A stretch of DNA of 62,811 bases from Thermoplasmatales archaeon (GCA_020350365.1 CP070712.1:1-62811), one strand, 5' to 3'; numbered from the stretch's first letter, positions 1-26,923 are shown. The notes: generated from the letters alone by a model not told the origin. Program-made: numbers and translations.

Positions 1-579
1 AGTCATCTGCATGGCCATTACAACTTCCATTACCTCTTCTCCAGTAATAGGAGGTTTGTCACGTTTTCGAAGTTCATACAATTTCCTCATAAGACGTCTA
101 TTTTCATTGTAAACTTTTATTGATTTTTCTAGATCTTTTTCTGTAATTTTTTTACCAGTCCAGTCTTCAACTTCATTTTTGAAAGTACGTAATTCTTCAG
201 TTAAAAATTCATAAGAATGAGGACTTTGAACTTTATGCGGCATGCAAAGAAACTTCTCAAATTCCACAGGTCTATGTTTTATCCAACTTGTATATGCTTG
301 CCTAATATGAAGACAAGATTGAGCAATCATAAGACCATCCAAATACTTATATCTGTTTTTTAAGCCCTGTGCAAGACAATCACGACAGAATGGGCAAAAC
401 ATAGCAAAAATATGAGGTTCTGTAACATCCTGTGGTTCATGACTACCCAAAACTCTTACAGGTAAAACACCTGCAGCATACAATATTTCTTCAGGCACAT
501 ATGTACAAAAATAACCCATTACTTTTCCGCCTGTCTTATCCTTCCATTTTTTAGCATAATCATGTCGGTTTTTTTCCAT
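1..579 (-). CDS. 2-hydroxyacyl-CoA dehydratase / benzoyl-CoA reductase BcrB/C (BadD/E, HgdB) family subunit. Only the N-terminal 193 aa are present; the 3' end runs off the window.
   Basis: Not in the ORF track because there is no stop in the window. Manual reverse translation from the ATG at 579 gives MEKNRHDYAKKWKDKTGGKVMGYFCTYVPEEILYAAGVLPVRVLGSHEP...FCPFCRDCLAQG. The YFCTYVPEEI-AAG-PVR block is typical of this family. Confidence 0.7.
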   Translation of the reverse strand, partial: MEKNRHDYAKKWKDKTGGKVMGYFCTYVPEEILYAAGVLPVRVLGSHEPQDVTEPHIFAMFCPFCRDCLAQGLKNRYKYLDGLMIAQSCLHIRQAYTSWIKHRPVEFEKFLCMPHKVQSPHSYEFLTEELRTFKNEVEDWTGKKITEKDLEKSIKVYNENRRLMRKLYELRKRDKPPITGEEVMEVVMAMQMT

Positions 580-643
580 ATCCTTAAATTGTTCGATTAA
601 TTCTATTTTATTACCCCCTTTTTTTCCACATAAATAATCAATT

Positions 644-1087
644 TTACTTAAACTCAAGATTAATAAAACTACTTTTATCAAATCCAATGGATTTGAAAAA
701 TGCAATTAAATCTCCACTATCCCACTTAACTGTTGTATATACCTCATTTATACCTTCATTTTTAAAATATTTAATCAAAGCTTCACCTAGAGTTTTACCA
801 ATTCCTTTTCCCATAAATTTTGGATCTACTTCTATCATCTCAATCCAACCTGATCGCTCTAATCCAAATCCCCATTCCTTTATACAGCCAATTATAAAAC
901 CTGCAACTATTTTATCTTTATCAGCTACAAGGCATGTTTTAGGATATTTTTTAATAAAAGATGAAAAAAGGTCTTCAATTGGATATTCCATCACCTGACT
1001 TAGACCTTCTCTTACAACCTGTCTATGAATATCAGCTGCTTGTTTAATATCGTCTTCCTTCATAGATCTTATAGTAATTCTTGTCAA
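644..1087 (-). CDS. GNAT family N-acetyltransferase
   Basis: 147 aa. Acetyl-CoA binding block VDPKFMGKGIGKTLGEAL. TTG start a few nt after GAGGTG. Confidence 0.8.
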   Translation of the reverse strand: MTRITIRSMKEDDIKQAADIHRQVVREGLSQVMEYPIEDLFSSFIKKYPKTCLVADKDKIVAGFIIGCIKEWGFGLERSGWIEMIEVDPKFMGKGIGKTLGEALIKYFKNEGINEVYTTVKWDSGDLIAFFKSIGFDKSSFINLEFK

Positions 1088-1096
1088 ATCAACACC

Positions 1097-1234
1097 TCAA
1101 TCAATCCTGATAATTTTTACTTTTTTATCTATCCAATCTGGTGGGAGGTATATTCGACCACTATTACCACATTTCTTAACAATTTTTTCAAGCATCTCTT
1201 GACCATATACTTCAAATTTTGCTGGATTTACCAT
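1097..1234 (-). CDS. Small SpoVT/AbrB-like (DUF2080-like) protein, 45 aa
   Basis: Below the ORF-track cutoff. Manual translation: MVNPAKFEVYGQEMLEKIVKKCGNSGRIYLPPDWIDKKVKIIRID. The GNSGRIYLP..W..KKV motif is typical of AbrB-like swapped-hairpin proteins. The stop lies 9 nt before the GNAT start. Confidence 0.5.
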   Translation of the reverse strand: MVNPAKFEVYGQEMLEKIVKKCGNSGRIYLPPDWIDKKVKIIRID

Positions 1235-1300
1235 AAAAAACCCCACAGCTACAATATAGCTATATTTAAGCTATTTATAAATTTTTTTATGATTAAAAAA

Positions 1301-2536
1301 TTATCTATAATAATCTTGTTTGTCAAAAAGAAAAGTTCTACCTTGGGACTTATATTTTACACTATATCCTTCTTTTTTAAAGAAACTTTTTGCATATATC
1401 AACCTTTTGTTAATCTCATCCATAGGAATCTTTGGTTCGATACTTGCTGCTTCAGAACCTGATTTTGAAGAAAAAGGCATTAGTTGGCCAGCGCTGAATT
1501 TACAGTCTTTGATAAAGTCCAAGGTTTGTTTAAATTCCTCATCTGTTTCAGTTGGAAATCCTACAATAATATGAGTATGTAAAGATAGTTTTGGAAAAAC
1601 AGTTTTTAATCTAATAAGAGCATCCTTTATTTTTTCCTTATCATGAAAACGGTTCATAAGTTTTAAAATACGATTACTTCCAGATTGGACAGGAACGCCA
1701 ATACGAATTATTTTTTCTCTTTTCATTAAATCTTCCAGGTGATCAATATATTTTATAACCCATCTTGGACTTAAATTTGCAATTGAAATAAAATATTCAC
1801 CATCAATGCTTGTCATTTTATCTAATAATTCTGAGAAACTAGAACCTATATCCGTTCCGTAAGCACCTATATCATCAGCATTCATCATAAAATGCTTATG
1901 ACCATTTTTTAGTCCAAATTTAAATTCTTCTAAAACTTTTTCAAGGGGCTTGCTTTTGTGAGTACCAATCGCTTGTTTTATACCACAATAAGAACAATTA
2001 CTATTACATCCCCATGAAATCCTCATTCTATACATTGGTTCATCTACCATGATATTGTAGAAAAAGGAATTTTTACCATAAACACTTTTGAATATCTGGG
2101 TTTGAAAATTTACTAAGATTTTTTCTAACCATCCAATATTTCCCAAGAAATTCTTAACCGCTCCAACAAAATCTCCCTCATTTAAGTTAGAAAATGAGGC
2201 ATTTGCATCATCTACATCCCTAAATTTAACGATATTTTCTGGAAATAATTCATCCATCTTATCAGGGTCTTTATCCAGATCCTTTGTATTTATTGTTCTA
2301 CCCTGAAAAACAGAATTAAGTTTATCTTTTTCTATCTCAGGTAAACATCCACCAACAATTAACTCTGCTTCATATTTTTGAAATTCTTTGACCATGCGTA
2401 AAGATTCATCTGAAAGATGGTCAAATGCTCCACATGTTAAGAAAAATATAATATCAGCATCTTTTGGTTTGTTTACAATTTTGTAATTATTTCTTGCAAA
2501 GTATTTAGATATTCTAGTTGCATCAAGATATCTCAA
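1301..2536 (-). CDS. Radical SAM methylthiotransferase-like enzyme (MiaB/RimO/MtaB family). The true 5' end is probably at 2580 but is out of frame.
   Basis: CNSNCSYCGIK matches CxxxCxxC. MTTase N-domain cysteines are present (HTHSCKL in the upstream extension, FFLTCGAFD, VGGCLPE). See the frameshift finding. Confidence 0.75.
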   Translation of the reverse strand: MRYLDATRISKYFARNNYKIVNKPKDADIIFFLTCGAFDHLSDESLRMVKEFQKYEAELIVGGCLPEIEKDKLNSVFQGRTINTKDLDKDPDKMDELFPENIVKFRDVDDANASFSNLNEGDFVGAVKNFLGNIGWLEKILVNFQTQIFKSVYGKNSFFYNIMVDEPMYRMRISWGCNSNCSYCGIKQAIGTHKSKPLEKVLEEFKFGLKNGHKHFMMNADDIGAYGTDIGSSFSELLDKMTSIDGEYFISIANLSPRWVIKYIDHLEDLMKREKIIRIGVPVQSGSNRILKLMNRFHDKEKIKDALIRLKTVFPKLSLHTHIIVGFPTETDEEFKQTLDFIKDCKFSAGQLMPFSSKSGSEAASIEPKIPMDEINKRLIYAKSFFKKEGYSVKYKSQGRTFLFDKQDYYR

Positions 2537-2868
2537 TTTACATGAATGAGTATGGATGAATACCTTTTTCGTTTTTTCATGCCTCCCTATAATATAGATT
2601 TAGTAAAGCCCTAATTAGTATTTTTCATTTAAATGTTTGGTTAAAAATATAATTTTCATAAGAATCCAGTACTAATATAGGTATCTTTGTTTTTCCATTG
2701 GTTTTTTTATATTTTTAAAAAAAAATACGAAACATATCATAATTATATTAGTATGATAAAGAATCAAATAAATATCATCAAATCTTGATTTTCACCAAAA
2801 CATAAAATAATAGTTTAGCATACTATCAAAACTTAGTAATTACATATTCTTTAGATGGAGGAGCTTAA

Positions 2869-3612
2869 ATGCAATTCAAAGATAAATCTGCTATTATAAC
2901 AGGTGGAAGTATAGGAATAGGTGCAACTATTGCAGTAGAACTTGCACGTGAAGGTGCAAACGTAGCGATAAATTACCGCAAACATGATGCTGAAGCAAAA
3001 GAAGTTGCTAAAAAAATCGAGAAGTTAGGAAAAACATGTCTCATTGTAAAAGCAGATGTCAGCAATTATAATCATGCTGAAGGAATGTTTAAAAAAGTTA
3101 TTGAAGAATTTGGCAGATTAGACTTTCTTGTATGTAATGCAGGTATAAATAGAGACAGAGTTATTTGGAAGATGAGTGAAAATGATTGGGATAATGTTCT
3201 CAATGTGAATCTAAAGGGTTATTTCATTTATAATAAACTAGCTTCTGCACATTTTAAAGAGCAAAGATATGGCAAAATCGTTAACCTTACATCAATTAAT
3301 GGTCTAAGAGGAAAATTTGGACAGTGTAACTATTCAGCATCAAAAGGTGGAATTATCTCACTTACCAAAGCTCTTGCAAAAGAGGTTGGTAAATTCAATG
3401 TTAATGTAAACGCAGTTGCACCAGGAATGGTAATGACTGAAATGGCAAAAAACATACCGCCAGAATTCCTTCAAAAGGCAATAGATGAAACCGTTTTAGG
3501 TCGTATTGCTACAACAGAAGATATTGCAAATGTTGTAATTTTCTTATGCAGTGAAAAGGCTAAACATATAACAGGTGAGGTAATCAAGGTCGATGGAGGC
3601 CAATATATTTAA
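2869..3612 (+). CDS. Short-chain dehydrogenase/reductase, 3-oxoacyl/3-hydroxyacyl reductase type (FabG-like)
   Basis: TGGSIGIG, NAG and YSASKGG (YxxxK) motifs. GGAGGAG SD 5 nt upstream. Confidence 0.85.
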   Translation: MQFKDKSAIITGGSIGIGATIAVELAREGANVAINYRKHDAEAKEVAKKIEKLGKTCLIVKADVSNYNHAEGMFKKVIEEFGRLDFLVCNAGINRDRVIWKMSENDWDNVLNVNLKGYFIYNKLASAHFKEQRYGKIVNLTSINGLRGKFGQCNYSASKGGIISLTKALAKEVGKFNVNVNAVAPGMVMTEMAKNIPPEFLQKAIDETVLGRIATTEDIANVVIFLCSEKAKHITGEVIKVDGGQYI

Positions 3613-3627
3613 AAAGTTGGTGAAAAA

Positions 3628-4779
3628 GTGAAGGTAGGAATTGTTGGTATAGGTCATGGAAAATTTGGAAATCGGAGTGATGCAACAGTTCAAGAGCTAG
3701 CTTTTGAACCATTTAAAGAAGCAATAGAAGATGCAAATAATCTAAGAAGAGAAGATATCGATTCATTAATTGTCGGATCGGTTCCTGAATATCATATGCA
3801 GCGCTCACTTCCTGGAGTTGTTGCAGAATATGTAGGTATTAATCCAAAATCTACCTGGCTTACTGAAGCCGCTTGTGGGTCTGGAAGTGCTGCTATTAGA
3901 ACAGCTTATATGTCAATAAAATCAGGAATGCATGATATCGTTGCAGTAATTGGAGTACAAAAAATGAGGGAACTATCTACAGAGGAAATTTTAGCATTAA
4001 TGGGAAGAGTTGGAGATGTTCAATGGGAATCAATTTTTGGAACTACATTTCCTGGTTATTACGCTCTTTACGCAAATAGACACATGCATGAATTTGGAAC
4101 TACAAAAGAACAAATGGCCCTAGTTGCTGTGAAGAATCATTATTATGGTTCAATGAATCCATATGCATTTTTCCAAAAGGAAGTTACAAAAGAAAGAGTT
4201 TTAGGTTCAGAGGATGTGGCATTTCCAGTAAATGTCTTTGATTGTTGTGCTAATGCAGATGGTGCAGCATGCGTAATTATGACAAATGAAAAACTTGCAA
4301 AGAAATTCAATGACACCCCAGTATGGTTTGAAGGTCTTGGTTCAGCTTCAGCACAAATGTCTCTACTTAGAAGACCTAATCTTGTTGAAATTCCAAGTGC
4401 AGTTGAAGCAGCAAAGCAAGCATATAAACAGGCAAATGTAGAACCATCAAATATTTCAGTTGCAGATGTTCATGATTGTTTTACAATAGCAGAAATCATG
4501 GCATATGAAAACCTTGGTTTCTGTGAGAAGGGGAAAGGTGGAAAGTTCATTGAGGAAAAACAATCCTACATTGGTGGTAAAAATCCTGTAAATGTTGATG
4601 GTGGCCTTAAGGCAAAGGGCCATCCAGTTGGTGCAACAGGTGTCTCAATGACAACTGAAATTGTAAAACAATTAAGAGGAGAAGCTGGAAAAAGACAGGT
4701 ATCAGGTGCAGACATTGGACTTACTCACAATGTTGGTGGAATTGGCCAATATACATTTGTTCATATACTTAGGAGGTGA
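3628..4779 (+). CDS. Thiolase (archaeal/SCP-x-type acetyl-CoA C-acyltransferase)
   Basis: 383 aa. EAACGSGSAAI active-site Cys region, HDCF and NVDGGLKAKGHPVGATG blocks. GTG start. Confidence 0.85.
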   Translation: MKVGIVGIGHGKFGNRSDATVQELAFEPFKEAIEDANNLRREDIDSLIVGSVPEYHMQRSLPGVVAEYVGINPKSTWLTEAACGSGSAAIRTAYMSIKSGMHDIVAVIGVQKMRELSTEEILALMGRVGDVQWESIFGTTFPGYYALYANRHMHEFGTTKEQMALVAVKNHYYGSMNPYAFFQKEVTKERVLGSEDVAFPVNVFDCCANADGAACVIMTNEKLAKKFNDTPVWFEGLGSASAQMSLLRRPNLVEIPSAVEAAKQAYKQANVEPSNISVADVHDCFTIAEIMAYENLGFCEKGKGGKFIEEKQSYIGGKNPVNVDGGLKAKGHPVGATGVSMTTEIVKQLRGEAGKRQVSGADIGLTHNVGGIGQYTFVHILRR

Positions 4780-4784
4780 AAATA

Positions 4785-5204
4785 ATGCCATTCAAATATT
4801 TTGGAAAAATCAATTTTACTCCTTATACAAAGGTGGATAAATTTTCAGAGTATCTTCATAAAGGAAAACTAATGGGCAGCAGATGTAAGAATTGTGGCGA
4901 GATTTATTTCCCACCGAGAGCTGACTGCTTAAAATGTATGGATGATAAATTTGAATGGGTTGAGTATTCAGGAAAAGGCATACTTCATAGTTTTACAACA
5001 ATACATGCAGCTCCAAAGGGATTTGAAGATATTGCACCCTATACCTTGGGCATTGTTGACCTTGAAGAAGGGGGACGACTTATATCTTGGATTGGGGATA
5101 TCCCAGAAAAAGAAGTAAAAATAGGAATGAATGTAAAGGTTGTTCCGCGCATCTTTGAAGAAATACCTGAAATTAAATTATATTACACAATTGAAAAACC
5201 TTAG
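4785..5204 (+). CDS. DUF35 Zn-ribbon/OB-fold protein (thiolase-associated)
   Basis: CKNCGEIYFPPRADCLKC zinc ribbon followed by an OB-fold-like region. ATG 8 nt after AGGAGG. Immediately follows the thiolase; an alternative GTG start at 4776 would overlap its stop. Confidence 0.8.
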   Translation: MPFKYFGKINFTPYTKVDKFSEYLHKGKLMGSRCKNCGEIYFPPRADCLKCMDDKFEWVEYSGKGILHSFTTIHAAPKGFEDIAPYTLGIVDLEEGGRLISWIGDIPEKEVKIGMNVKVVPRIFEEIPEIKLYYTIEKP

Positions 5205-5206
5205 AT

Positions 5207-6343
5207 TTATTCTTTCTTTATTGGTTTTGGAAGTACTGCTTCTTTTAGTTTATCATCAAATGGATGACCCTCAGCAATAAGTTGACGATACTTAACAAAA
5301 TCAATTACATCCTTACCAGTAATTTTTTTATTGTTAAATGCATGAAATCCAAGAAATGCCTCAGTTGCCATATTTGTAGCAAGCCAATGACGGTTAGCAA
5401 GTTTTGTCTGATCCCAAAAGAATTTCTTCTTCATTCTGATGCCATCAATTGATTTTATTAAACAACCTGGCATGAGATTTGTATAAGTCCATACTATATC
5501 ATCAACAGCTTTATCCAAGAGTTTAAAATCGGTTGGAGTTGATTTTATAATCTCACGGGCTTTTTTGAATTCTTCCCCCTTTAAAAATTCTCCATAAACA
5601 ATTTCTCCATCCTCTACATACTTATCTATTATTACTGTTGGATTTCTAATGAATTTATTATCTTGTTTTAAAACAGGGACAACTTTGCTAATGAGACTTA
5701 ATCTCTTTGCTTTATATGCAGACCATAATTCACAAGAAATACAATTCCACATTGCATCCTCAATACAAAGCATCCAAGGCAGAAAATCAGTGGATCCACC
5801 ATCAGGTGCAGAACCATGACGTGGTCCAGCTTGACCATATATTGCTAAGTCTGACGATACTGCAATATCACAGGCCATACCTATTTCTTGGCCACCTGCA
5901 ACACGCATTCCATTGACTCTACAAATAGTAGGTTTTTTACAATTTAAAATTGAATCTACCATTGCATTAAATAAATCCATGTAAAGTCCATATTCATTTG
6001 GTTTACCACTATAATATTCTGCATATTCCTTAGTATTTCCCCCAGTACAAAATGCTTTATCTCCAACTGCAGTAAAAATTGCTGCAACAACACTTCTATC
6101 CATTGATGCTTTATGAAATCCTGCGATAACTCCCTTGACCATATCTGTAGTATAAGAATTATATTGTGCAGGATTATTAAGTGTAATCCATGCAGAATTC
6201 AATCCTTTTACTTTTTTTCCCTCATTGTCGATAACAGGTTTCAATTCATAAATTATACCTGGTGAATCACGACTAAAATATTCTTTTCCCCACAAATCAT
6301 GATTCTTTATTTCATTATCTTTTGGTAACCAATCTAATGACAT
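5207..6343 (-). CDS. bamA: 6-oxocyclohex-1-ene-1-carbonyl-CoA hydrolase (ring-cleaving crotonase, BamA/Oah)
   Basis: 378 aa, long for a crotonase. Contains NNPAQYNSYTTDMVKG, AFCTGGNTKEYAEYY, RVNGMRVAGGQEIGMACD and YGQAGPRHGSAPDGGSTDFLP. Confidence 0.8.
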   Translation of the reverse strand: MSLDWLPKDNEIKNHDLWGKEYFSRDSPGIIYELKPVIDNEGKKVKGLNSAWITLNNPAQYNSYTTDMVKGVIAGFHKASMDRSVVAAIFTAVGDKAFCTGGNTKEYAEYYSGKPNEYGLYMDLFNAMVDSILNCKKPTICRVNGMRVAGGQEIGMACDIAVSSDLAIYGQAGPRHGSAPDGGSTDFLPWMLCIEDAMWNCISCELWSAYKAKRLSLISKVVPVLKQDNKFIRNPTVIIDKYVEDGEIVYGEFLKGEEFKKAREIIKSTPTDFKLLDKAVDDIVWTYTNLMPGCLIKSIDGIRMKKKFFWDQTKLANRHWLATNMATEAFLGFHAFNNKKITGKDVIDFVKYRQLIAEGHPFDDKLKEAVLPKPIKKE

Positions 6344-6477
6344 TTTTATCCTCCCTTAAAGTAGAATAGTAGAGCAGAATGAGGATTACATTATTTATAT
6401 CTTTTTTAATTAAAAACTCCTTCAAATAAATAAGATTATATACCCTTCATCTTATGACAGAATAAGGGGAGAAAGTT

Positions 6478-7650
6478 ATGAAAGCTGCCGTTTTATATGG
6501 AAAGGAAGAGTTGAATATCGTTCCTGATTTTGAAGATCCTGTTATCAAAGAATCAGATGTTCTTGTAAAGTCAAAATACACTGGGTTATGCAGTACAGAT
6601 CGCACTCTGTATCGTGGTTTTGTTCCATTCAAACCACCACTAATTATTGGTCATGAAATCGCTGGTGTTGTCGAGGAACTTGGTAAATCTGCAAAAGGAC
6701 TTGATGTTGGTGATCATGTAATTATTCCACCAGTATTCCCTGGTTGTGAAGATGAAAATTGTCCAGCATGCAAAGAGGGACTTACTAACAGATGTAAAAA
6801 TTCTGTATTTATTGGTCATGGAGTTCATGGTGGAGATGCAGAATTAATTGCTGTTCCTTCAAAATATACATTCAAAATTAAAGACAGTGTCCCATTGGAG
6901 GAAGCATGTATTATTCCAGATGCAGTCTCAACTCCATTTCATGCATTAAAAAGTAGATCTGTTCCACCTCATATTATTAAAAACACTCTAAACTCAAGCA
7001 AGCTATTTGATCAAAAGACTCATTGGTTAAAAGGAAAAAATGTAGTGGTTTTTGGAGTTGGAGGAGTTGGTGGACCAACAGTAAACCTTGCTGCAAAATA
7101 TTTCCAAGCAAAAAATGTCCTTGCAGTTGACATTTTTGATAACAAGCTTGATTTTGCAAAAAAACTAGGTGCTACCCAAACTGTTAATTCAAAATCCTAT
7201 TTTGAAGAAAATAACATTAAATTTAATGAACTAACTGGACGAGATAAAGCAAAAGCAATATCTGGTCTGGCAAGACATATTAGTTCTCATTTTGCAGAAG
7301 ATAAATTCCAGGTCGATTGTGTACTTGATTGTTCTGGTGTTTCTGATACTTTTCCGATGGCAGTTGAAACTGTTAGCAAAAATCGAACTGTTATTCAAGT
7401 TGGTTGGCCACCAAAACCTGTTCAAGAATTTCTGAACCAGAAAATCATGGATAAATATCTATCAATAAATGGAACCTGGGCCTGTCCGATGAACGAGTTG
7501 GATGAAAATGTAAAAGCTGTAGAAGATGGAATTGTGGATTTAGATTTACTAGTGACTAACAAGGATTATAAGTTGGATAGTTTGGAAAATGCGATACATG
7601 ATCTTGAAGCAGGGAAAATTCTTGGGAGAGCAACAATTTGTATTGAATAA
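6478..7650 (+). CDS. Zn-dependent alcohol dehydrogenase family. Candidate 6-hydroxycyclohex-1-ene-1-carbonyl-CoA dehydrogenase (Had-like).
   Basis: GHEIAGVV catalytic Zn site, structural Zn cysteines CEDENCPACKEGLTNRC, GVGGVGG Rossmann motif. Divergent from bamA. Confidence 0.6.
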   Translation: MKAAVLYGKEELNIVPDFEDPVIKESDVLVKSKYTGLCSTDRTLYRGFVPFKPPLIIGHEIAGVVEELGKSAKGLDVGDHVIIPPVFPGCEDENCPACKEGLTNRCKNSVFIGHGVHGGDAELIAVPSKYTFKIKDSVPLEEACIIPDAVSTPFHALKSRSVPPHIIKNTLNSSKLFDQKTHWLKGKNVVVFGVGGVGGPTVNLAAKYFQAKNVLAVDIFDNKLDFAKKLGATQTVNSKSYFEENNIKFNELTGRDKAKAISGLARHISSHFAEDKFQVDCVLDCSGVSDTFPMAVETVSKNRTVIQVGWPPKPVQEFLNQKIMDKYLSINGTWACPMNELDENVKAVEDGIVDLDLLVTNKDYKLDSLENAIHDLEAGKILGRATICIE

Positions 7651-7666
7651 TTTGAGGTGTTTGATT

Positions 7667-8434
7667 ATGACATATAAAACAATAATTGTTGATGAAAAAG
7701 ATATGATTGGTAGAATTACATTCAATGTTCCGCCATTAAATATTCTAAATATCGAAATGATGGAGGAGATCAACCAGGCATTAAAGGAATTTCTAAAGAA
7801 GAATTTAAAAGTTTTAATTTTAGATGCGAAAGGTAAGGCATTCTCAGCAGGTGTTGATGTATCTGATCATACTAAAGAAAAAGTTGCTAAAATGATACAA
7901 GTCTTTCATGAAATTTTTACCAATCTTTACAAAATCAATGCACCAACCGTTGCACTTGTAAATGGGGCTGCTCTTGGTGGTGGTTGTGAGGTTGCAACAT
8001 TTTGTGACATTGTAATTGCTTCAGAAAAATCAAAGTTTGGACAACCTGAAATTAAAGTGGGAGTATTTCCGCCAATAGCTGCAGCAATATTTCCCAAGTT
8101 AATGTGGAGTAAAAAAGCACTTGAGCTTATTATTACAGGTGATGTAATAAGTGCAAATGAAGCAAAGGACCTTGGTCTTGTTAATCATGTTCTCCCTGTT
8201 GATAATTTTGAAATAGAATCTGAAAAACTAATTAATGAAAAACTTGCAAGCAACAGTGCAATTGTTCTTCAGCTTACAAAAAGGGCGTTTATAGAAGGAG
8301 CTAAAAATAATTATTCTGAATCTATCAAGATAATTGAAGATATTTACCTCAACAATCTTATGAAAACTAACGATGCAAATGAGGGACTTACTGCTTTTCT
8401 AGAAAAAAGACAACCCGTTTGGAAAAACAAATAA
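7667..8434 (+). CDS. Enoyl-CoA hydratase/crotonase. Candidate cyclohexa-1,5-diene-1-carbonyl-CoA hydratase (Dch-like).
   Basis: 255 aa from the ATG at 7667 (GAGGTG SD upstream). KAFSAGVDV and GAALGGGCE oxyanion-hole blocks. The track start at 7589 overlaps the upstream ADH. Confidence 0.6.
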   Translation: MTYKTIIVDEKDMIGRITFNVPPLNILNIEMMEEINQALKEFLKKNLKVLILDAKGKAFSAGVDVSDHTKEKVAKMIQVFHEIFTNLYKINAPTVALVNGAALGGGCEVATFCDIVIASEKSKFGQPEIKVGVFPPIAAAIFPKLMWSKKALELIITGDVISANEAKDLGLVNHVLPVDNFEIESEKLINEKLASNSAIVLQLTKRAFIEGAKNNYSESIKIIEDIYLNNLMKTNDANEGLTAFLEKRQPVWKNK

Positions 8435-8536
8435 TTTTTCTACCATAATTTTCTGTTACTTTTTTAAATAGTTTTAGCATAGTATTTATATATTGTTTAT
8501 TCTATAGTTATAATAATAAGATAGTGGAGTAATATA

Positions 8537-10093
8537 ATGCAACGTAATACCTTCATCATTAAATTGACTACTTTGATTATAATAGTTCTGTTTATAGGTG
8601 CAGATATTGTTCCATCAACAGGTAACATTTTAAATAAAAAAAATCAACCAACTGAACTCATTATTGAAGGCCCTATAGAGGGCAAAGTAGGAATTGCATA
8701 TGAATATACTTTCTTTTTAATTGATTCAGGAGAGTGCGAATTTTTTCTAAAAGTGAATTGGGGTGACGGAGAAATTACCGACTGGTTTGGTCCATACATA
8801 GAAGGAGAAAAAGCAACAGCCAGTCATGCTTGGGATAAAAGTGGCAAATATATTATCCAGGCGGAGGCTAGGTGTAATGAGTCTAACTATAATGCATCAT
8901 TATTAGTCACAATTACATCAGGTAACATCCTATATGTTGGTGGTGGTGGATCAAATAACTACACGAGTATTCAGGAAGCAATAGATGATGCAATTGATGG
9001 AGATACTGTATTTGTCTATGACGAATCATCACCTTATAATGAAAACATCTCTATTGTTAAATCTATATTTTTGATAGGGGAAAATAAAAATACTACAATT
9101 ATTGAAAATGTAGAAAATGATATTGTTATAATTAATGCCAATAACGTTAAGATGAGTGGTTTTACTATAAGATATGGCAGATATGCTATTAGGCTAATAT
9201 CATCGAATGGATGCTTAATTACAGAAAATATTGCTATAAATAATAGCTTAGAGGGGATTTATTTAGCTAATTCTTCTTATAATACCATTTCTAAAAATAT
9301 TGTTCAGGATAATTATTTTGGTATTGGTCTTCATTGGACCTTATCAGGTCCCGGGCCTTGTTTGTATAATAATATCCTCTATAATAAAATTTTAAACAGT
9401 AACCAAAGAGGACTACATATGAGCCTCTATCACAAATATAACAATATAATTGGAAATACAATAGCATATAACCAAAGATATGGCATTAAGATATGTTGTG
9501 ATTGTAATTTAAATATCATATATCATAATAATTTTATAGAAAACGCTCAAAATGCTGATGATTTATACAACAATACATGGGATAATGGTTATCCTGCAGG
9601 TGGTAATTATTGGAGTGATTACAATGGAACAGATGAAGATGGAGATGGTATTGGTGATACGCCATATAATATTCCTGGTGGAGGTAATAAGGATAATTAC
9701 CCACTAATGCAACCATTTGGTGAAAATAAGCCTCCATTCATAGAAATTAAAAATCCTAAAAAAGATTATTTCCATTTTTCAGGTATTCCTTTATTTTTAA
9801 AGCCCTTCAGTTTGATTGCTGATACAATGACAATTGGAGGTTTTAGATTAAGACCAATCTTAATTAATGCAATAGACGACTTTGATATGAGTGAGAGACT
9901 AACTGTAAAAGTTTTTCTAAATGGTGAAGAACAAGGGGACGCAATATATTGTAATGATTCAGAATTATATGAATGGTTTTGGACAGGACTTGCATTAGGA
10001 AATTATAATTTAACAATAACTGCTGAGGATTCTCTTGGGGAAATCGGAATTACAGAAATGAAGGTATGGAATTTTTGTTTTATACCCAAATAA
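8537..10093 (+). CDS. Secreted or surface protein: signal anchor, PKD-like WGDG domain and right-handed beta-helix (NosD-like) repeats
   Basis: N-terminal hydrophobic segment. VNWGDGEITDW. Repeated N-rich beta-helix turns. YNGTDEDGDGIGDTPYNIPGGGNKDNYPL. Confidence 0.6.
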   Translation: MQRNTFIIKLTTLIIIVLFIGADIVPSTGNILNKKNQPTELIIEGPIEGKVGIAYEYTFFLIDSGECEFFLKVNWGDGEITDWFGPYIEGEKATASHAWDKSGKYIIQAEARCNESNYNASLLVTITSGNILYVGGGGSNNYTSIQEAIDDAIDGDTVFVYDESSPYNENISIVKSIFLIGENKNTTIIENVENDIVIINANNVKMSGFTIRYGRYAIRLISSNGCLITENIAINNSLEGIYLANSSYNTISKNIVQDNYFGIGLHWTLSGPGPCLYNNILYNKILNSNQRGLHMSLYHKYNNIIGNTIAYNQRYGIKICCDCNLNIIYHNNFIENAQNADDLYNNTWDNGYPAGGNYWSDYNGTDEDGDGIGDTPYNIPGGGNKDNYPLMQPFGENKPPFIEIKNPKKDYFHFSGIPLFLKPFSLIADTMTIGGFRLRPILINAIDDFDMSERLTVKVFLNGEEQGDAIYCNDSELYEWFWTGLALGNYNLTITAEDSLGEIGITEMKVWNFCFIPK

Positions 10094-10181
10094 TGCTAAA
10101 AATCATGTCTTAATTATGATTTTTTTGAATTAATTGGACTAATTTCTCGATGATTATAAAAAGAAAAAATGAATTTAAGGC

Positions 10182-11132
10182 ATGTTCATGAATTGTCTAG
10201 TAACTGGTGCTACAGGATTTATTGGAAATGCAATTACTAAAAGACTTGCTAAAGAAGGAAATGTTGTTTATGCATTGATTCATAATAAAAAGCCTGAAAA
10301 ATATGAAAAAAATGTTGAGTACATAAAATGTGACTTAACCAAACCTTCAACTTTGAAGAAACTGCCAAAGAAAATTGATATAGTTATTCATTGTGCTGCA
10401 ATAGTCAAGGATTATGGTCCAAAGGACCTTTTTTACAACGTAAATGTTGAAGGAACAAAAAATCTAGTTAATGCGTGTAAAAAATACAAATTGAAACGTT
10501 TTTTATTTATTAGTCATATGGGATATGAATTAGAAAAAAAGTATAGCTATTATAATATTACAAAAAAAATAGCAGAAAAATATCTAAATGAAAAATACCA
10601 AAATGATGGTTTTCCAGTTGTAATAATTATTCCTGGAAATGTATATGGGCCTGGTGCGACAACATGGGTCTTAAGACCTTTGGAATCCATTAAAACAAAT
10701 AAGATAGCATTAATAAATAATGGGCAAGGTATTTTTTTACATACATATATTGATAATCTTATCGATGCCTTAATCACAGCCATTAATGAACCAAAAGCAA
10801 TTGGTCAAACTATTAATGTTACAGATGGAGATCATTCAATAACATGGGGCAAATATCTAAATGATCTTGCAAAAATAATGGGTAAAAAACCAATAAACAA
10901 GAATTTTTCAAAAAAAACAGGTATGATAATTGCAAAAACTATGATGTATCTATATAAAATTTTTAATTTTCAACCTTGGGTAACACCTTTAGTTGTAAGT
11001 ATATTTTCAAATGATAAAACTGTAAGTATCAAAAAAGCTGAAAAGATTTTAAATTATAAGCCGAAAATTAATTATGAAAAAGGAATGAAAGAAGTTGAAG
11101 AATGGATTAAACATAAGAGATTATCTTTTTAA
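10182..11132 (+). CDS. NAD-dependent epimerase/dehydratase (extended SDR)
   Basis: VTGATGFIGNAI Rossmann motif; 316 aa. Confidence 0.75.
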   Translation: MFMNCLVTGATGFIGNAITKRLAKEGNVVYALIHNKKPEKYEKNVEYIKCDLTKPSTLKKLPKKIDIVIHCAAIVKDYGPKDLFYNVNVEGTKNLVNACKKYKLKRFLFISHMGYELEKKYSYYNITKKIAEKYLNEKYQNDGFPVVIIIPGNVYGPGATTWVLRPLESIKTNKIALINNGQGIFLHTYIDNLIDALITAINEPKAIGQTINVTDGDHSITWGKYLNDLAKIMGKKPINKNFSKKTGMIIAKTMMYLYKIFNFQPWVTPLVVSIFSNDKTVSIKKAEKILNYKPKINYEKGMKEVEEWIKHKRLSF

Positions 11133-11157
11133 AAAAAATATTATAAAAAATAAAAAT

Positions 11158-13197
11158 CTATTCTCCCTTAAATGAAGGTCTTTGTCTTTTTATAATAGAA
11201 TTTAATCCTTCAATAGCATCCTTTGTTGAGAATATCTCTGAAAGATGGTTAAGCTCTATTTCCAGACCATCTTTAAGTTCAAGAGAGCTACCCTCATCTA
11301 TTATTTTGTTGGCAAGTTTTATAGCAATGGGTGCTTTGTAGGAAATTGTTTTTGAAATCTTTTGACCAATTTCGTTTAATTCACCCTTTCCAGATAGAAC
11401 GTATTCAATGTTTTCATCGGAGAAATATTTCTTTACCTTTTGAAAAAATTCAGGTAGTTCTATTTCTTTTTTTATTGATTTCTTAATCATTTTTCCTTTA
11501 GTAATAATTTCAATTATCTTTCTATCTATTTCATCCTGTGTAACAACATGTTCAATTAAACCTATCGAAGCAGCAGATTTTGCATCTAGGATTTTTCCAG
11601 TAAAAATTAGGTATTTTGCAAGTTCCTTTCCGATATATCTAGTAGTTCTTTGAGTTCCTCCCAAACCTGGATAAATACCAATCCCTGTTTCTGGAAAACC
11701 AATGCTTCCCTTATCAGTAGCAATTATTATATCAGCTGAAAGTGCAATCTCTGCACCTCCTCCCAATGCCAGACCATCAAGCTTTGCAATTACTGGTTTA
11801 TTGGATGCATCTATCTTATTTAGAACAGAATGTCCATATCTTGTAAAATTATAGATATCATCAATTTTGTTTTGCTCAATCTTTTTTATAAAGTATTGAA
11901 TATCTGCTCCTGCAACAAATGCCTTACCTGCACCCTCAAGGACAATTCCTTTTACCTTAGGATTGCTATTTGCCTCAGTAAATTTTTCATCTAGTTGAGA
12001 AATAACTTCTTCGTTAATCGAATTCATCGCCTCAGGTCTATTTATAAGAATTCTTGCAATATTTTCAACTATTTTAAGATCTACATAGCTGAAGCTCCAA
12101 GGTTTTTTATTTTCGTATTGAGCCTTTAAAATTGAAGGTGTCTTCATCATCGGATATTTATCAACGAGTTTTGTAACAATTTCATAAGAGCGTTTAATTC
12201 CATATCTATTCATTAATTCAAATGGACCACTTCGCCATCTTAGACCTATTTTTGCTCCCCTATCAATATCTTCTATTTTTGAAATACTTTCTTCTGCAAT
12301 ATCACAAGCAACTAAGAAAACCGTACCAAGTAAACGCTCTTCTATTTCAGCAGCCTTTGAGGGTTCAATCTCTCCACTCATATCCCATTGCTCTTTTTTC
12401 TCAAATTGTTGTCTAAGACAATTACTTGGCTTGTAAAAATCACCTAATTTTTCTCCAAGACTTATAGTTGAGTGATATGCAATTGGAACACCTGTTAAGT
12501 TCATTAACTCAAAAGGTCCAATTGGTATTTTAAAAACCTTTTTTGCAATTTCATCTATTGTAGGAATATTTGCAACTTCCTCTTCCAACAGTCGAGTAGA
12601 TTCGTTTAACCATGGTACAAAAAACCTATTAACAACAAATCCTGGAGCATCTAATGCATTAATACCTGTTTTACCTATCATTTTTGAAAAAACTTCAGCT
12701 AAAGAAATTGTATTCTTACTTGTTTTTTCACCAGGAATTATTTCTAATAAACGATTCTTTGCAGGATGATAAAAAAAATGAAGTCCAATAAACTTTTCCT
12801 GTCTTTTTACTACCTTTGCCAGTTCTGCTATTGAAAATGAAGAAGTATTAGAGGCAAAAATAGTTGAATCCTTACAAACACTATCTAAATATTTGAAAAG
12901 ATCTTTTTTTACATCTAAATCTTCAAATACTGCCTCAATAATGATATCAGCATCTTTTAACTCATCTTTATTTGTCGTTCCAGTTACAAGATTTAAAATA
13001 TCTTTTGTTTGTTCTTCTGTAAGTATTTTCCGTTCAATTGCTTCGGATAGAGTTTTTTTAATGCTGTTTAATCCATTTTGTACAAATTTTTCATCAACAT
13101 CTACCATTACTACATGAATTCCTTCTTGAGCTATCTTTTGGGCAATTCCACTACCCATATTACCTGCACCAATAACTCCTATTTTTTGGATTTTCAT
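11158..13197 (-). CDS. Bifunctional 3-hydroxyacyl-CoA dehydrogenase (N-terminal) / enoyl-CoA hydratase (C-terminal)
   Basis: IGVIGAGNMGSGIA at the N-terminus. C-terminal crotonase blocks KAFVAGADI and GLALGGGAEIAL. ATG at 13197 follows AGGTG; the track start at 13230 overlaps the thiolase stop. Confidence 0.85.
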   Translation of the reverse strand: MKIQKIGVIGAGNMGSGIAQKIAQEGIHVVMVDVDEKFVQNGLNSIKKTLSEAIERKILTEEQTKDILNLVTGTTNKDELKDADIIIEAVFEDLDVKKDLFKYLDSVCKDSTIFASNTSSFSIAELAKVVKRQEKFIGLHFFYHPAKNRLLEIIPGEKTSKNTISLAEVFSKMIGKTGINALDAPGFVVNRFFVPWLNESTRLLEEEVANIPTIDEIAKKVFKIPIGPFELMNLTGVPIAYHSTISLGEKLGDFYKPSNCLRQQFEKKEQWDMSGEIEPSKAAEIEERLLGTVFLVACDIAEESISKIEDIDRGAKIGLRWRSGPFELMNRYGIKRSYEIVTKLVDKYPMMKTPSILKAQYENKKPWSFSYVDLKIVENIARILINRPEAMNSINEEVISQLDEKFTEANSNPKVKGIVLEGAGKAFVAGADIQYFIKKIEQNKIDDIYNFTRYGHSVLNKIDASNKPVIAKLDGLALGGGAEIALSADIIIATDKGSIGFPETGIGIYPGLGGTQRTTRYIGKELAKYLIFTGKILDAKSAASIGLIEHVVTQDEIDRKIIEIITKGKMIKKSIKKEIELPEFFQKVKKYFSDENIEYVLSGKGELNEIGQKISKTISYKAPIAIKLANKIIDEGSSLELKDGLEIELNHLSEIFSTKDAIEGLNSIIKRQRPSFKGE

Positions 13198-13226
13198 AAT
13201 TTTACACCTTTTTTTAAAAAAAAGTA

Positions 13227-14435
13227 TCAATCAATACTAACCTTTAAAATTATAGCAGCACCTGTATCTCCAGCTGCACAACCATCAAAAAGTCCATAGC
13301 CCCCTCCTTTTAATACCAACTCTTCGATAAGCTCAATAATCAATCTAGCTCCAGTAGGAGCCTGTGGATGACCATAAATAAGAGATGAACCATAATTGTT
13401 CATTTCATTCCATTCTATGTCCATTTCCCTACAAAAATAGATATCGTTAACTGCAAATGGATTATGTGTTTTTATAGCATTTATATCTTCAATTGATAAA
13501 TTTGCCTGTTTAAGTGCCATTTTGGCTGCAGGGATAATTGCCATTGCCATATAGCCCTTTTTCGCCCGACCTTCACCATAGGACAATACTTGGATTTCAA
13601 TTATTTTATCCTTGCTTAACTGTTTTGCCTTATCACGAGTAGTAACAATAATACCACAATTACCATCTGCTGGATGAGTTTGTGTGCCAAATGTAACCGT
13701 TCCATTTGGTATTACTGGCCTTAGTTTTTCAAGTCCTTCAGGTGTGGTTGGATAAATTCCCTCATCTCCCTCTACTGTTGCTAGAACCTTTCGACCTTTT
13801 CTATCTTTTACCTCAATAGGACTAATCATATATTTTTTTTGAAAAGCCCTGTTGTTTGTTATTGAATCCTGATACTGTTTGTAACGTAAAAATGTAATTT
13901 TATCTTGCTCTTCTTTAGGTATATCTGCTTCTTTTGCTACATTTTCAGCAGTCTCTACCATTGCATTTTTAGCAAAGGGATCATAACCGAAGTTATCCCA
14001 AACCCAACTCTCTCTATCTTGGGTCGCACCAGGAGCTTGTGGATTTGGATAAACAAGAAGAGGACCATTAGAACACCTGTCTGCGTATATTACAAGAATA
14101 TTTTTACGCAATCCAGTCTCAATTCCAATTGTGGCTAATTCAACCCCTCTTGCACCAGTTGCACAAGCTTGACCAATCATTGGACCGGTGATATGTTCAG
14201 CTCCAATCATACCTGCTAACCATGGAGTTCCATAAAATTGAGAAGGTTGAGGTATTGTAATACCAAAAATCAATTCGTCAAACTCTTTTGGATTTATTTT
14301 TTTTTCCTGCAGAAATCTTGCACCAATATCAGCTGCAAACTTGATTGAATGAAGATTTTGAAAACTTTTTTGCCAAGCACAAAAAGGTGTGCTCCAATAT
14401 CCACCATATGGTATGTATGTATTTTTAAAAACCAT
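13227..14435 (-). CDS. Acetyl-CoA acetyltransferase (thiolase)
   Basis: 402 aa. GQACATGARG active-site Cys, NPFAVND, and C-terminal GCAAGDTGAA. Confidence 0.85.
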   Translation of the reverse strand: MVFKNTYIPYGGYWSTPFCAWQKSFQNLHSIKFAADIGARFLQEKKINPKEFDELIFGITIPQPSQFYGTPWLAGMIGAEHITGPMIGQACATGARGVELATIGIETGLRKNILVIYADRCSNGPLLVYPNPQAPGATQDRESWVWDNFGYDPFAKNAMVETAENVAKEADIPKEEQDKITFLRYKQYQDSITNNRAFQKKYMISPIEVKDRKGRKVLATVEGDEGIYPTTPEGLEKLRPVIPNGTVTFGTQTHPADGNCGIIVTTRDKAKQLSKDKIIEIQVLSYGEGRAKKGYMAMAIIPAAKMALKQANLSIEDINAIKTHNPFAVNDIYFCREMDIEWNEMNNYGSSLIYGHPQAPTGARLIIELIEELVLKGGGYGLFDGCAAGDTGAAIILKVSID

Positions 14436-14711
14436 AATTTCTCCCTGCCCAGGTATAATATTAATTGTATTAATAGATTCCTAGATTTGAATAAATAAAG
14501 GGTTTTTTCTAGTAATAAATTAATAAAATCATTAAAATTGAGAGACAACTCAATTGCGAGGTATATATATTCTCCATCTGACTTTGAAGATTAATAATAG
14601 ATGCATTTAAAAGATATCATTACAACTCTTTATTTTAACACAACTTGATCATTGTAACATTTAAATATCCAATAAAGAATTATAATAAATATTTTGAGGG
14701 AGGAAAACCAT

Positions 14712-15470
14712 ATGAACAAAAAAATAACAGGTACTTTTGTTTGTATACTTTTGATTGTAACTGCTTTATCAGCTGCAGGAGCAACAAATGTTCAAACTAT
14801 AAGATATCTAATTGAAAATAACAAATTAGAACCATGTACAATTACTCCGATTGATTCTAATGGTAATATTGCTATTAAAATCGTTGGTAAGATCACAAAT
14901 GTAAATGATCCAGATAATCTTCTAGGTGGTACGATTCTTATTGGAGATAGAATTACAGGGAAATATAATTATGATTCTGGAACACCGGATTCAGTTGCCG
15001 ATCCAAAGATAGGTGCATATGAATACACTACATCCAATTATGGAATTGAACTTAAAGCTGGTGGATTTGTCTTTAAAACAGATCCAAATGATGTTGACTA
15101 TTCAATTCATATTTGCGATGGTCATTATTTTTGTGATTATTGGGATGAGTATCGTATTTATAGTGATAGTAATTTGCAACTCTCAAATGGAATAGATGTA
15201 GATAGAATTATATGGTTTCTCACTGATTCAACAGGTAATGCTTTATCTAGTGATGCTTTACCAACTATTCCTCCGATTCTATCAGATTGGGATGAAAATA
15301 GATTAGCAATCATGGGTTATCATCCAATGTTCGTAATAAGGGCTACAGTTACAAGGGCCACCTTAAGCAGGGGTAATACAAGAGACGAGTACTTTAATAT
15401 GCAACCCAATTTATTTTGGCTGTTGGAACATTTCCCAATGCTGGAAAGACTACTGAATCTTATAAGATAA
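14712..15470 (+). CDS. Secreted hypothetical protein with a conserved C-terminal LLEHFPMLERLL motif
   Basis: Signal-like N-terminus MNKKITGTFVCILLIVTALSAAGA. GAGGGAGG SD. The C-terminal 30 aa are shared with the CDS at 44948..46609. Confidence 0.6.
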   Translation: MNKKITGTFVCILLIVTALSAAGATNVQTIRYLIENNKLEPCTITPIDSNGNIAIKIVGKITNVNDPDNLLGGTILIGDRITGKYNYDSGTPDSVADPKIGAYEYTTSNYGIELKAGGFVFKTDPNDVDYSIHICDGHYFCDYWDEYRIYSDSNLQLSNGIDVDRIIWFLTDSTGNALSSDALPTIPPILSDWDENRLAIMGYHPMFVIRATVTRATLSRGNTRDEYFNMQPNLFWLLEHFPMLERLLNLIR

Positions 15471-15513
15471 TTATATATAGATATAAGTTGATAAATAAAT
15501 TAAGGAAAAGTTT

Positions 15514-15558
15514 GTGGAAAAATATTTTATACAAAAAAAACCTCAAGTTTTTTTCCAC
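15514..15558. terminator. Candidate bidirectional terminator region between convergent genes
   Basis: GTGGAAAAA / TTTTTCCAC inverted repeat (9 bp). It flanks an A8 run (T8 on the minus strand) and a T7 run. Confidence 0.3.
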
Positions 15559-15705
15559 ATTCTACTCCTTACTTATTCTTTATTTTATTACTTTTACAGG
15601 TAAATTCGATTTGTTGGAATCTCTCAAGTTCGTACAAAATGTTTTGTTGGTATATATATTAAAAAAAATTTATATCTTAAAATAGACAACAGATATTTTC
15701 TATAA

Positions 15706-17705: not shown

Positions 17706-17723
17706 TTCTATTCCTACAAGTAA

Positions 17724-18932: not shown

Positions 18933-19070
18933 CCACCATATCTAAATAAGGTTATTGGGAATGATTGGTACGGTATAATAATTTTATTATAATCTAAGCT
19001 ATAAACTAGTTTTTATCAATTAAATTAATAACAACGTAAAATAAAGTGTAATAAATCAAAAAGCATTTTT

Positions 19071-20210: not shown

Positions 20211-20285
20211 TTAAATCACCAAATCCGTGATATGCTAATCCTCTAAAAACCTTTAGGTATAAACTATAGCTAGATGAATTCTTAT

Positions 20286-25491: not shown

Positions 25492-25938
25492 ATGAATAAA
25501 TCAATCAATATTTTTAAATTAATGGTTAAAAATCACCGTAAAATCGAAGATTTATTGAATGATCTTGAAGAAAAAAACAATCAAGATTTCAATACAATGT
25601 ATAATGCATTTAGTAAATTTGAATGGGAACTTGAAAAACATATTTTTACTGAAGAAAAAGCAATATTTACCTCTTACAATCCAGATGACAAAACTGAAGG
25701 ATATAAGATGCTACCTGAACTTACTAAACAGCATAACTTTATCCTTAACAAATTAAATAATTGGAGGAAAGACATTAGAAACAAAAGTAATATATCTGAT
25801 TTTTATAGTTTCAAGGTTTATTTGACCAGACATAAAACCTTTGAAGAAGAAAAAGTCTATCCAATACTTGATCAATCAATAACTGATGATGAAAAAATAA
25901 AAATTGCTGTAAAAATTAATGAAATCGTACAAAAATAG
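25492..25938 (+). CDS. Hemerythrin-like (HHE cation-binding) domain protein
   Basis: H/E ligand pattern: NHRKIEDLL, ELEKHIFTEE, QHNFIL, RHKTFEEEKV. Confidence 0.65.
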   Translation: MNKSINIFKLMVKNHRKIEDLLNDLEEKNNQDFNTMYNAFSKFEWELEKHIFTEEKAIFTSYNPDDKTEGYKMLPELTKQHNFILNKLNNWRKDIRNKSNISDFYSFKVYLTRHKTFEEEKVYPILDQSITDDEKIKIAVKINEIVQK

Positions 25939-25947
25939 GTGAGATTT

Positions 25948-26133: not shown

Positions 26134-26135
26134 CT

Positions 26136-26917: not shown

Positions 26918-26923
26918 AAATAA

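Follow-up and report, generated by a model that had tools for sequence, protein, structure and literature searches.

A probable anaerobic benzoyl-CoA catabolic island in an uncultured Thermoplasmata archaeon

The bam lower pathway of Geobacter and Syntrophus is composed of BamR, BamQ and BamA, and these obligate anaerobes use an ATP-independent class II reductase (BamB-I). The bzd cluster of Azoarcus/Aromatoleum sp. CIB (bzdNOPQ-M-V-W-X-Y) has been characterized structurally (8S02, PMC11971306), and in its reductase the [8Fe-9S] double-cubane cluster of BzdN is ligated by Cys36/73/100/263/293/327 (PMC11971306). Among archaea, Ferroglobus placidus is the only one with enzyme-level evidence for a benzoyl-CoA pathway, according to the work of Schmid et al. 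(2015/2016) as cited in PMC6500515. Here, we analyzed a 62.8-kb stretch of DNA from a Thermoplasmatales archaeon (CP070712.1, positions 1-62811; ‘the window’), which probably opens within an anaerobic benzoyl-CoA catabolic island of a strictly anaerobic member of the Thermoplasmata.

An earlier interpretation of this DNA, made from the sequence alone (the sequence-only reading), had stressed that aromatic-ring catabolism is biochemically documented in very few archaea. The rarity holds for biochemistry only; on the basis of genomes, the pathway has been predicted in print for Asgard archaea, Bathyarchaeia and Thermoplasmata/Thermoprofundales. Dong et al. (2019; PMC6472368), whose predictions cover Thermoplasmata and Bathyarchaeota, reported dch, had and oah alongside class I bcr genes in 12 metagenome-assembled genomes (MAGs), Thermoplasmata included, and considered how acetogens or fermenters could afford a reductase that consumes ATP. 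As relayed in PMC10581246 and PMC9493321, aromatic degradation based on a phenylacetate-CoA ligase and benzoyl-CoA reductase (BCR) was proposed for Thermoprofundales (Liu et al., 2020; Environ Microbiol 22:329). The same type of cluster was described in Hermodarchaeota and also in Lokiarchaeota (Zhang et al., 2021; PMC8163825). The pathway has already been predicted for this lineage, and the island is a known kind of system that was correctly recognized. The present analysis adds residue-level support by way of the 2025 BzdNO structure, quantified synteny, a gene set defined for expression, a lineage-restricted non-canonical alcohol dehydrogenase (ADH) as an unannotated candidate for Had, and an Asgard BadI/MenB-like crotonase in place of BamA.

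A BamA-family ring hydrolase near a bzd-type BzdN fragment

The gene at 5207-6343 (minus strand) encodes a 378-aa protein that scores 573.6 bits with the BamA/Oah model TIGR03200 (cut-off 464.45), with residues 12-371 aligned to positions 1-360 of the 360-position model. This test applies the equivalog cut-off over the full model, i.e., including the C-terminal extension past the crotonase core. The runner-up family was BadI, and a Rhodopseudomonas-type BadK/BadH/BadI route was rejected, the hydrolase being BamA and the BadI model reaching only 103.9 vs 467.6 bits. NCBI already lists an identical protein (100%) under the name of this hydrolase, from a Thermoplasmatales MAG. There was no BamA/Oah structure among the PDB sequence matches, where the nearest solved proteins were MenB-type crotonases at ~85 bits. 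As judged by its full-length score, the product is a true member of the BamA/Oah family, as the sequence-only reading had proposed, rather than a protein outside that clade, and ring-hydrolase activity is predicted for it.

The left edge of the window cuts through a gene of the PF06050 (HGD-D) family on the minus strand (1-579), leaving the N-terminal 193 aa of its product. This fragment scored 226.7 bits with the bzdN model TIGR03190 over model positions 13-201 of 377, for which the cut-off of 453.8 is meant for the full protein. The BcrC, double-cubane and HadC models gave 103-106 bits, about half of the BzdN score (HadC, 103.1 bits with a cut-off of 700). Among solved structures, BzdN (8s02_B) matched at 218 bits, compared to 95 for MbdN and 89 for HadC (3o3m_B). 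The fragment shares 52% identity over 189 aa with the crystallized BzdN (8s02_B), and its Cys25/62/89 align with the cluster ligands Cys36/73/100, while the remaining three ligands fall past the edge of the window. A full-length orthologue, 91% identical to the fragment, reaches 479.4 bits with TIGR03190 and passes the 453.8 cut-off. In the nine orthologous pairs of BzdN and BzdO that were examined, all six cluster cysteines of BzdN are kept, and so are Cys95/128/380, Trp46, Glu65, Tyr97, His131, Gln274 and Tyr298 of BzdO; the sole difference among the residues compared is Gly in place of Ser44 in BzdO. The sequence-only reading had placed this gene in the BcrB/C/HgdB family, and model scores, structural matches and orthologous operons now specify a reductase-type BzdN. 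By sequence, it is assigned to a class I benzoyl-CoA reductase of the bzd type, as the subunit that stores electrons in its double-cubane [8Fe-9S] cluster.

To place these two genes in a wider context, we turned to public loci, which are referred to by L numbers. In 75 of them BzdN identity is 70% or higher, and these were used for the tallies below, with counts of upstream genes restricted to the loci that hold at least 6 kb upstream of bzdN (n = 34). BzdO was present in 46/46 loci reaching far enough, and BzdP and BzdQ in all 42 of the loci extending further. Besides BzdO, these orthologous operons encode two ATPase subunits (BzdP-like and BzdQ), a large Fe-S flavoprotein and a ferredoxin. 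In L002, BzdN (479.4 vs 453.8 bits), BzdO (621.8 vs 448.6) and BzdQ (433.6 vs 380.2) all pass their cut-offs. By analogy with these relatives, we infer that BzdO, BzdP and BzdQ are encoded in the host genome.

In the window, bzdN lies 4.6 kb from the BamA gene, and BzdN is present in 22/26 Thermoplasmata-lineage loci that hold a BamA orthologue. Upstream of bzdN, the BamA gene was found in 23/34 loci, together with a short-chain dehydrogenase/reductase (SDR) in 24/34, a thiolase in 25/34 and a DUF35 protein in 24/34. Because these four recur in BzdN-related loci, the clustering of the genes is not due to chance. A GNAT gene is situated directly upstream of bzdN in 32/34 loci, and the order BamA, SDR-thiolase-DUF35 trio, GNAT, bzdNOPQ persists in species with BzdN identity down to 70%. 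Two loci, L008 and L010, have exactly the gene order of the window, its radical-SAM gene included, and beyond bzdN they carry bzdO, a bzdP-like gene and bzdQ as well as the gene for a ~840-aa Fe-S flavoprotein; L082 shows, in addition, a 95-aa ferredoxin.

Candidate enzymes for the steps to acetyl-CoA

Divergently from the BamA gene, across a spacer of 134 bp, runs the gene for a 390-aa Zn-ADH-family protein (6478-7650, plus strand; PF08240, PF00107), and directly downstream of it lies that for a 255-aa crotonase (7667-8434, plus strand; PF00378). The start of the latter at 7667 is preferred over a longer ORF from 7589, since the orthologues likewise have 255 aa. The sequence-only reading had proposed Had-like and Dch-like functions for this pair. 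The Zn-ADH and crotonase family assignments stood, and the former gene is supported by its position and the latter by its linkage across phyla; membership of the curated Had and Dch families was not supported by the model scores. The proposed sequence from dienoyl-CoA via 3-hydroxypimeloyl-CoA to glutaryl-CoA is supported, with the labels Had and Dch lowered to those of candidates based on context.

The model scores of this pair are among the observations that weigh against the benzoyl-CoA reading. With the Had model TIGR03201 the 390-aa protein reached 118.4 bits vs 338.65, as the fourth-ranked family and in two separate stretches, and the solved Had (7qul) matched it at 76 bits vs 102 for a generic Bacillus ADH (1rjw). 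With the Dch model TIGR03189 the crotonase reached 163.7 bits vs 292.5, in third place and slightly behind generic short-chain enoyl-CoA hydratase models; by sequence it falls below the cut-off of the curated family. In addition, BzdO, BzdP and BzdQ lie outside the window and are known from relatives only, bacterial BamA homologues of 76-77% identity occur without a BCR within 10 kb, no CoA ligase is present in the window, and the steps of the pathway in this lineage are known from genes alone. Because bacterial homologues occur with no BCR nearby, BamA by itself is no proof of aromatic-ring reduction. In L002, L004 and L005, a 595-632-aa AMP-forming CoA ligase occupies the place of the radical-SAM gene, and a 275-aa Amidohydro_2 (PF04909) protein directly follows BamA (in L002, the Amidohydro_2 protein at 2249-3076 and the ligase at 7361-9148). 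Both are missing from the window, so that the island has no substrate-activating ligase nearby.

For the crotonase, conserved gene context across phyla makes the Dch function likely. By inspection, the protein retains GGGCE and QPE, the two motifs that hold the catalytic glutamates in true hydratases. In other phyla, too, crotonase and SDR orthologues occur in linkage with BamA or bzd genes. In Asgard archaea, crotonase orthologues (54-56% identity) directly upstream of bzdN/bzdNOPQ are flanked by a hydrolase-like crotonase on one side and a Had-like ADH on the other, and Dch is their top model, still below threshold; the Asgard ADH, in turn, has Had as its top-scoring model, also below threshold. 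In Latescibacteria DG_63, a 57%-identical orthologue ends a BamA-SDR-thiolase-crotonase operon.

The 390-aa ADH is, by its position, a possible Had and a weaker candidate for its step than the crotonase is for Dch. In the window, its gene is transcribed away from BamA and immediately precedes the crotonase gene, an arrangement that recurs in L003, L007, L008, L009, L010, L012 and L082; at least eight related genomes have the enzyme at this Had position next to BamA and the crotonase. Nearly all of its listed homologues have 390 aa (71-92% identity), and those that are named all come from Thermoplasmata/Thermoplasmatota MAGs; among the homologues listed, none bears the source name ‘Had’. Among 1.84 billion representatives clustered at 50% identity, the clade amounts to one full-length cluster plus fragments. 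Beyond it, the score falls from 792 to 186 bits and full-length identity to ~40% or less, and the closest proteins outside the clade include both Had-like ADHs below threshold and TDH/IolM-like ones. Alignments to ordinary ADHs of ~340 aa break into two or three stretches. Across 26 orthologues, there is no substitution at the zinc ligands Cys38, His59, Glu60 and Cys90/95/98/106, and most glycines of the dinucleotide-binding stretch G193-V-G-G-V-G-G199 do not vary either. An AlphaFold2 model built from 26 close homologues had a mean pLDDT of 49.5 and was unusable. On this basis we put forward, tentatively and with doubts that slightly outweigh our confidence, that the Had step is carried out by this non-canonical, lineage-restricted clade of 390-aa Zn-ADHs with insertions, and that the island is self-contained from benzoyl-CoA to acetyl-CoA in a fermentative archaeon. 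If this is true, surveys based on profile hidden Markov models (HMMs) under-count complete benzoyl-CoA pathways in an abundant sediment lineage.

The next candidates belong to the trio on the plus strand: a FabG-like SDR (2869-3612; PF13561/PF00106), a thiolase of the archaeal/SCP-x type (3628-4779; NF004720, 500.4 bits vs a cut-off of 420) and a DUF35/ChsH2-type protein with a zinc ribbon and an OB fold (4776-5204; PF12172, PF01796). The start of the DUF35 gene overlaps the thiolase stop by 4 bp, and the two are translationally coupled. The SDR is 61% identical to the one directly after BamA in Latescibacteria DG_63, and in the archaeal relatives BamA is accompanied by both the SDR and the thiolase/DUF35 pair. 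The SDR may be a 3-hydroxypimelyl-CoA dehydrogenase and the thiolase, paired with the DUF35 protein, a 3-oxopimelyl-CoA thiolase. A Bbs-type benzylsuccinate module was rejected as an identity for the trio: BbsB scored 198.8 vs 750 and BbsA 52.6 vs 250, and no BbsEFGH-like genes are present.

The island stretches to ~20.2 kb through a β-oxidation block on the minus strand (11158-20210). This block holds a FadB-like fusion of 3-hydroxyacyl-CoA dehydrogenase and enoyl-CoA hydratase in reversed domain order (11158-13230; PF02737, PF00725, PF00378), an acetyl-CoA C-acyltransferase of the thiolase II type (13227-14435; TIGR01930, 190 bits, below 240.55), EtfA with an N-terminal 2x[4Fe-4S] ferredoxin domain (15706-16908; AcrA-like model, below cut-off), EtfB (16905-17705; EtfB model, below cut-off) and two acyl-CoA dehydrogenases (17724-18932 and 19071-20210; AcrC, glutaryl-CoA dehydrogenase (Acd) and cyclohexanecarboxyl-CoA dehydrogenase models, all below cut-off). 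The fusion gene is found at the same position in L082, L007 and L012, the second thiolase is 70-73% identical to a thiolase within Asgard bzd clusters, and other bzd loci hold homologues of the acyl-CoA dehydrogenase-EtfAB set at 55-60% identity, with those of EtfA and EtfB in L030, L053 and L075. The two acyl-CoA dehydrogenases are candidates, by sequence, for glutaryl-CoA or butyryl-CoA dehydrogenase. Each step to acetyl-CoA has a candidate gene inside 20 kb.

In the route that we propose, the ATP-dependent class I bzd-type reductase would dearomatize benzoyl-CoA to cyclohexa-1,5-diene-1-carbonyl-CoA, with BzdO, BzdP, BzdQ, the ferredoxin and the ~840-aa NAD(P)H-linked Fe-S flavoprotein presumably encoded just left of the window. 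The diene would be hydrated by the 255-aa crotonase (Dch function), and the 6-hydroxy product would be oxidized with NAD+ by the 390-aa Zn-ADH (Had function). BamA/Oah would then add water and cleave the ring to give 3-hydroxypimelyl-CoA, which the SDR and the thiolase/DUF35 pair could convert to glutaryl-CoA and acetyl-CoA. From there, the way to acetyl-CoA may run through the acyl-CoA dehydrogenases together with EtfAB, and then the FadB-like fusion and the second thiolase. Except for BamA and the reductase, the substrates given here (those of the crotonase, the ADH and the SDR, of either thiolase and of the acyl-CoA dehydrogenases) are putative, as are the physiological direction and the substrate source.

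Alternative readings and genomic setting

The left-edge gene shares its common Pfam family (PF06050) with 2-hydroxyacyl-CoA dehydratases of amino-acid fermentation (HgdAB/FldBC/HadBC), and amino-acid catabolic genes are present in the organism, so that its neighbors might be read as generic β-oxidation genes. The fragment prefers BzdN over HadC both by model (226.7 vs 103 bits) and by structure (218 vs 89 bits), and the operons of relatives hold reductase-type partners, i.e., two ATPase subunits and a BzdO above its equivalog cut-off with the benzoyl-CoA-binding residues kept; a specific ring hydrolase lies 5 kb away. The sequence-only reading had named a dehydratase operon with no reductase-type partners as one of two findings that would undo it, and an Hgd/Fld-type identity is effectively refuted by the BzdN scores and the two-ATPase operons, leaving this explanation barely conceivable. 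A non-aromatic role of BamA and the SDR/thiolase, in the metabolism of pimelate, a dicarboxylate or cyclohexanecarboxylate, with the reductase nearby only incidentally, would suit the BamA homologues (76-77% identity) of DG_63 and an Eiseniibacteriota genome, which follow a MarR gene and genes of the 2-oxoacid-elongation type and have no bzd genes within 10 kb. In the Thermoplasmata lineage, by contrast, 22/26 BamA loci also hold BzdN, and the gene order from BamA through the trio and GNAT to bzdNOPQ is kept down to 70% BzdN identity; we consider such a role quite improbable.

The substrate could also be another aryl-CoA or an alicyclic CoA ester, e.g., a substituted benzoyl-CoA, and this would explain the un-Had-like dehydrogenase. 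An Amidohydro_2 protein adjoins BamA in relatives, and the Amidohydro_2 family includes aromatic-acid decarboxylases. The 390-aa ADH stands apart in a clade of its own that has insertions, ~15 residues are inserted in BzdO, and the BzdO residue Ser44, near the substrate C3 in the crystal (PMC11971306), is Gly in all sediment-type orthologues. On the other hand, the remaining substrate-contacting residues are all kept and BzdO is ~61% identical to the Aromatoleum enzyme, MbdN, a subunit of 3-methylbenzoyl-CoA reductase, is a far poorer match (139 vs 458 bits), and BamA passes an equivalog model built on the unsubstituted pathway. A different substrate is thus unlikely, and degradation of benzoyl-CoA itself is the reading we retain.

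Related ring-cleavage genes have other neighbors elsewhere. In an Eiseniibacteriota genome (L086, CP070702.1), a MarR regulator, an aconitase small subunit and an HMGL-like synthase (7687-10011) come before the BamA homologue, and neither a reductase nor SDR/thiolase follows it. In Latescibacteria DG_63 (L084/L085, LJNC01000013.1), a MarR regulator, aconitase small and large subunits, an HMGL-like synthase and Iso_dh (5116-9950) precede the homologue; the genes in this upstream position are of the 2-oxoacid chain-elongation type. The DG_63 homologue is 77% identical to that of the window and opens a run (10001-21131) of SDR, thiolase and Dch-like crotonase, which continues on the same strand with NifB (350 bits vs a cut-off of 343.65), two NifH/CfbC-like ATPases that do not reach the NifH cut-off, a pair of highly diverged NifD/NifE-like proteins (~100 bits vs cut-offs of 486-505) and a Zn-ADH. 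No bzdNOPQ genes were found within 10 kb of the DG_63 BamA. The Nif-like genes could belong to an unrelated adjacent operon, or could encode a nitrogenase-like ATP-driven reductase tied to the ring-cleavage module. Since such other contexts exist, bamA alone should be used with caution as a marker of aromatic-ring reduction. In Asgard bzd clusters, a 321-aa BadI/MenB-like crotonase takes the place of BamA upstream of bzdN (L021, Promethearchaeota, 6950-9872; L018 and L048 alike), with 208 bits for BadI and 183 bits for the Oah model over its N-terminal half only. The ring-opening enzyme of the Asgard clusters, as assigned by these models, differs from that of the Thermoplasmata version.

Every gene that the sequence-only reading had listed was recovered at its position and in its family by ORF listing and profile searches, and its claim of an archaeal genome is borne out by ABCE1/RLI (54044-55816), a gene of the aRF1/Pelota family (51424-52506) and the NCBI source name. 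The G+C content is 29-36% across the window. The host is close to the Thermoprofundales/MBG-D MAGs SG8-52-3, SG8-52-4 and SM1-50. Of these, SG8-52-3 and SM1-50 are among the closest genomes that share the window's gene order, and Zhou et al. (2019; PMC6461988) counted them among Thermoprofundales (MBG-D) MAGs. Because of this listing, sequence relationship places the host, an uncultured benthic Thermoplasmata archaeon, within or near Thermoprofundales. The top identity to the BzdN fragment was 91% in one-genome-per-species contigs and 92% in a metagenome scan, so that the closest public contigs are at most 92% identical and the parent genome is absent from both collections scanned.

Two unrelated genes on the minus strand stand between bzdN and the trio, i.e., the gene for a GNAT acetyltransferase (644-1087; PF00583) and that for a radical-SAM methylthiotransferase-like protein of the MiaB/RimO family (1301-2536; TIGR00089, 220 bits, below the cut-off of 251). 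Their products matched only a 2.25-kb Logan contig (L001), which stops inside bzdN. The radical-SAM gene was found at the window's position in L008 and L010 only and is probably not part of the pathway. A 258-aa ORF (14694-15470, plus strand), with no Pfam or NCBIfam match, sits between the thiolase and Etf genes on the opposite strand, and a 192-aa ORF (55866-56444, plus strand) had no match in a search of Pfam only. No Rfam family (tRNA, rRNA, riboswitch) reached its gathering score in the whole window.

A 14-kb island for defence against oxygen and oxidative stress, nearly all on the minus strand, occupies 25492-39481. It encodes a hemerythrin, an FTR-like protein with a rubredoxin domain, two nitroreductases, a thioredoxin and an AhpC/TSA peroxiredoxin, a ferredoxin and a hybrid-cluster protein (30014-31627), a desulfoferrodoxin (31658-32107), a cysteine desulfurase, DsrE, four rubrerythrin-family proteins (34222-36396), Hsp20, a flavodiiron protein (37193-38377), a flavin-reductase-rubredoxin fusion and a Fur/PerR-family regulator (39071-39481). 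This is consistent with a strict anaerobe shielding oxygen-labile enzymes such as a class I reductase. Amino-acid catabolism is represented by a saccharopine dehydrogenase and an AlaDH/PNT-family dehydrogenase (48695-51363) and by an amidohydrolase adjoining a formiminotransferase-cyclodeaminase (58357-61312; histidine or formimino-glutamate route). These genes match the protein-degrading lifestyle proposed for the lineage and suggest that the aromatic acids are possibly derived from amino acids.

Thermoprofundales/MBG-D are among the commonest archaea of marine and estuarine sediments. If the pathway works, the lineage would share in the anaerobic turnover of aromatics derived from lignin, protein and petroleum, and would be the second archaeal lineage after Ferroglobus placidus with ATP-consuming, Birch-type ring reduction under energy limitation.

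Comparison with known systems

Judged by its BzdN fragment, the reductase is of the same type as that of the CIB bzd cluster, to whose BzdN the fragment is 52% identical. The orthologous BzdO proteins, at ~61% identity, keep the cluster ligands and active-site residues, and in the relatives the genes for an NAD(P)H-linked Fe-S flavoprotein and a ferredoxin lie downstream. Hydratase, dehydrogenase and ring hydrolase are in the cluster in both cases. Unlike in CIB, the host is an archaeon, the genes form divergent units with unrelated GNAT and radical-SAM insertions, the dehydrogenase is not canonical Had/BzdX-type by HMM score, the archaeal BzdO orthologues have Gly at Ser44 and an insertion of ~15 residues, and the window holds neither a CoA ligase nor a BzdR-type regulator.

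The ring hydrolase belongs to the BamA family (TIGR03200), as in the bam systems of Geobacter and Syntrophus, whereas the partner reductase here is class I; no bamB-I genes were seen in the window or the related loci. The likeness to Ferroglobus placidus is drawn from published accounts, in which it too is an archaeal strict anaerobe whose class I reductase (Ferp_1184-1187) depends on ATP and feeds into further enzymes of the benzoyl-CoA pathway. It differs in being, by the same accounts, a hyperthermophilic Fe(III)-respiring member of the Archaeoglobi whose enzymes have been assayed, whereas the present host is an uncultured, presumably fermentative mesophilic sediment archaeon for which the evidence is that of sequence. 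The published MAG predictions are closest in kind, with a class I Bcr and a Dch-Had-Oah route deduced from the same kind of data and partly for the same lineage.

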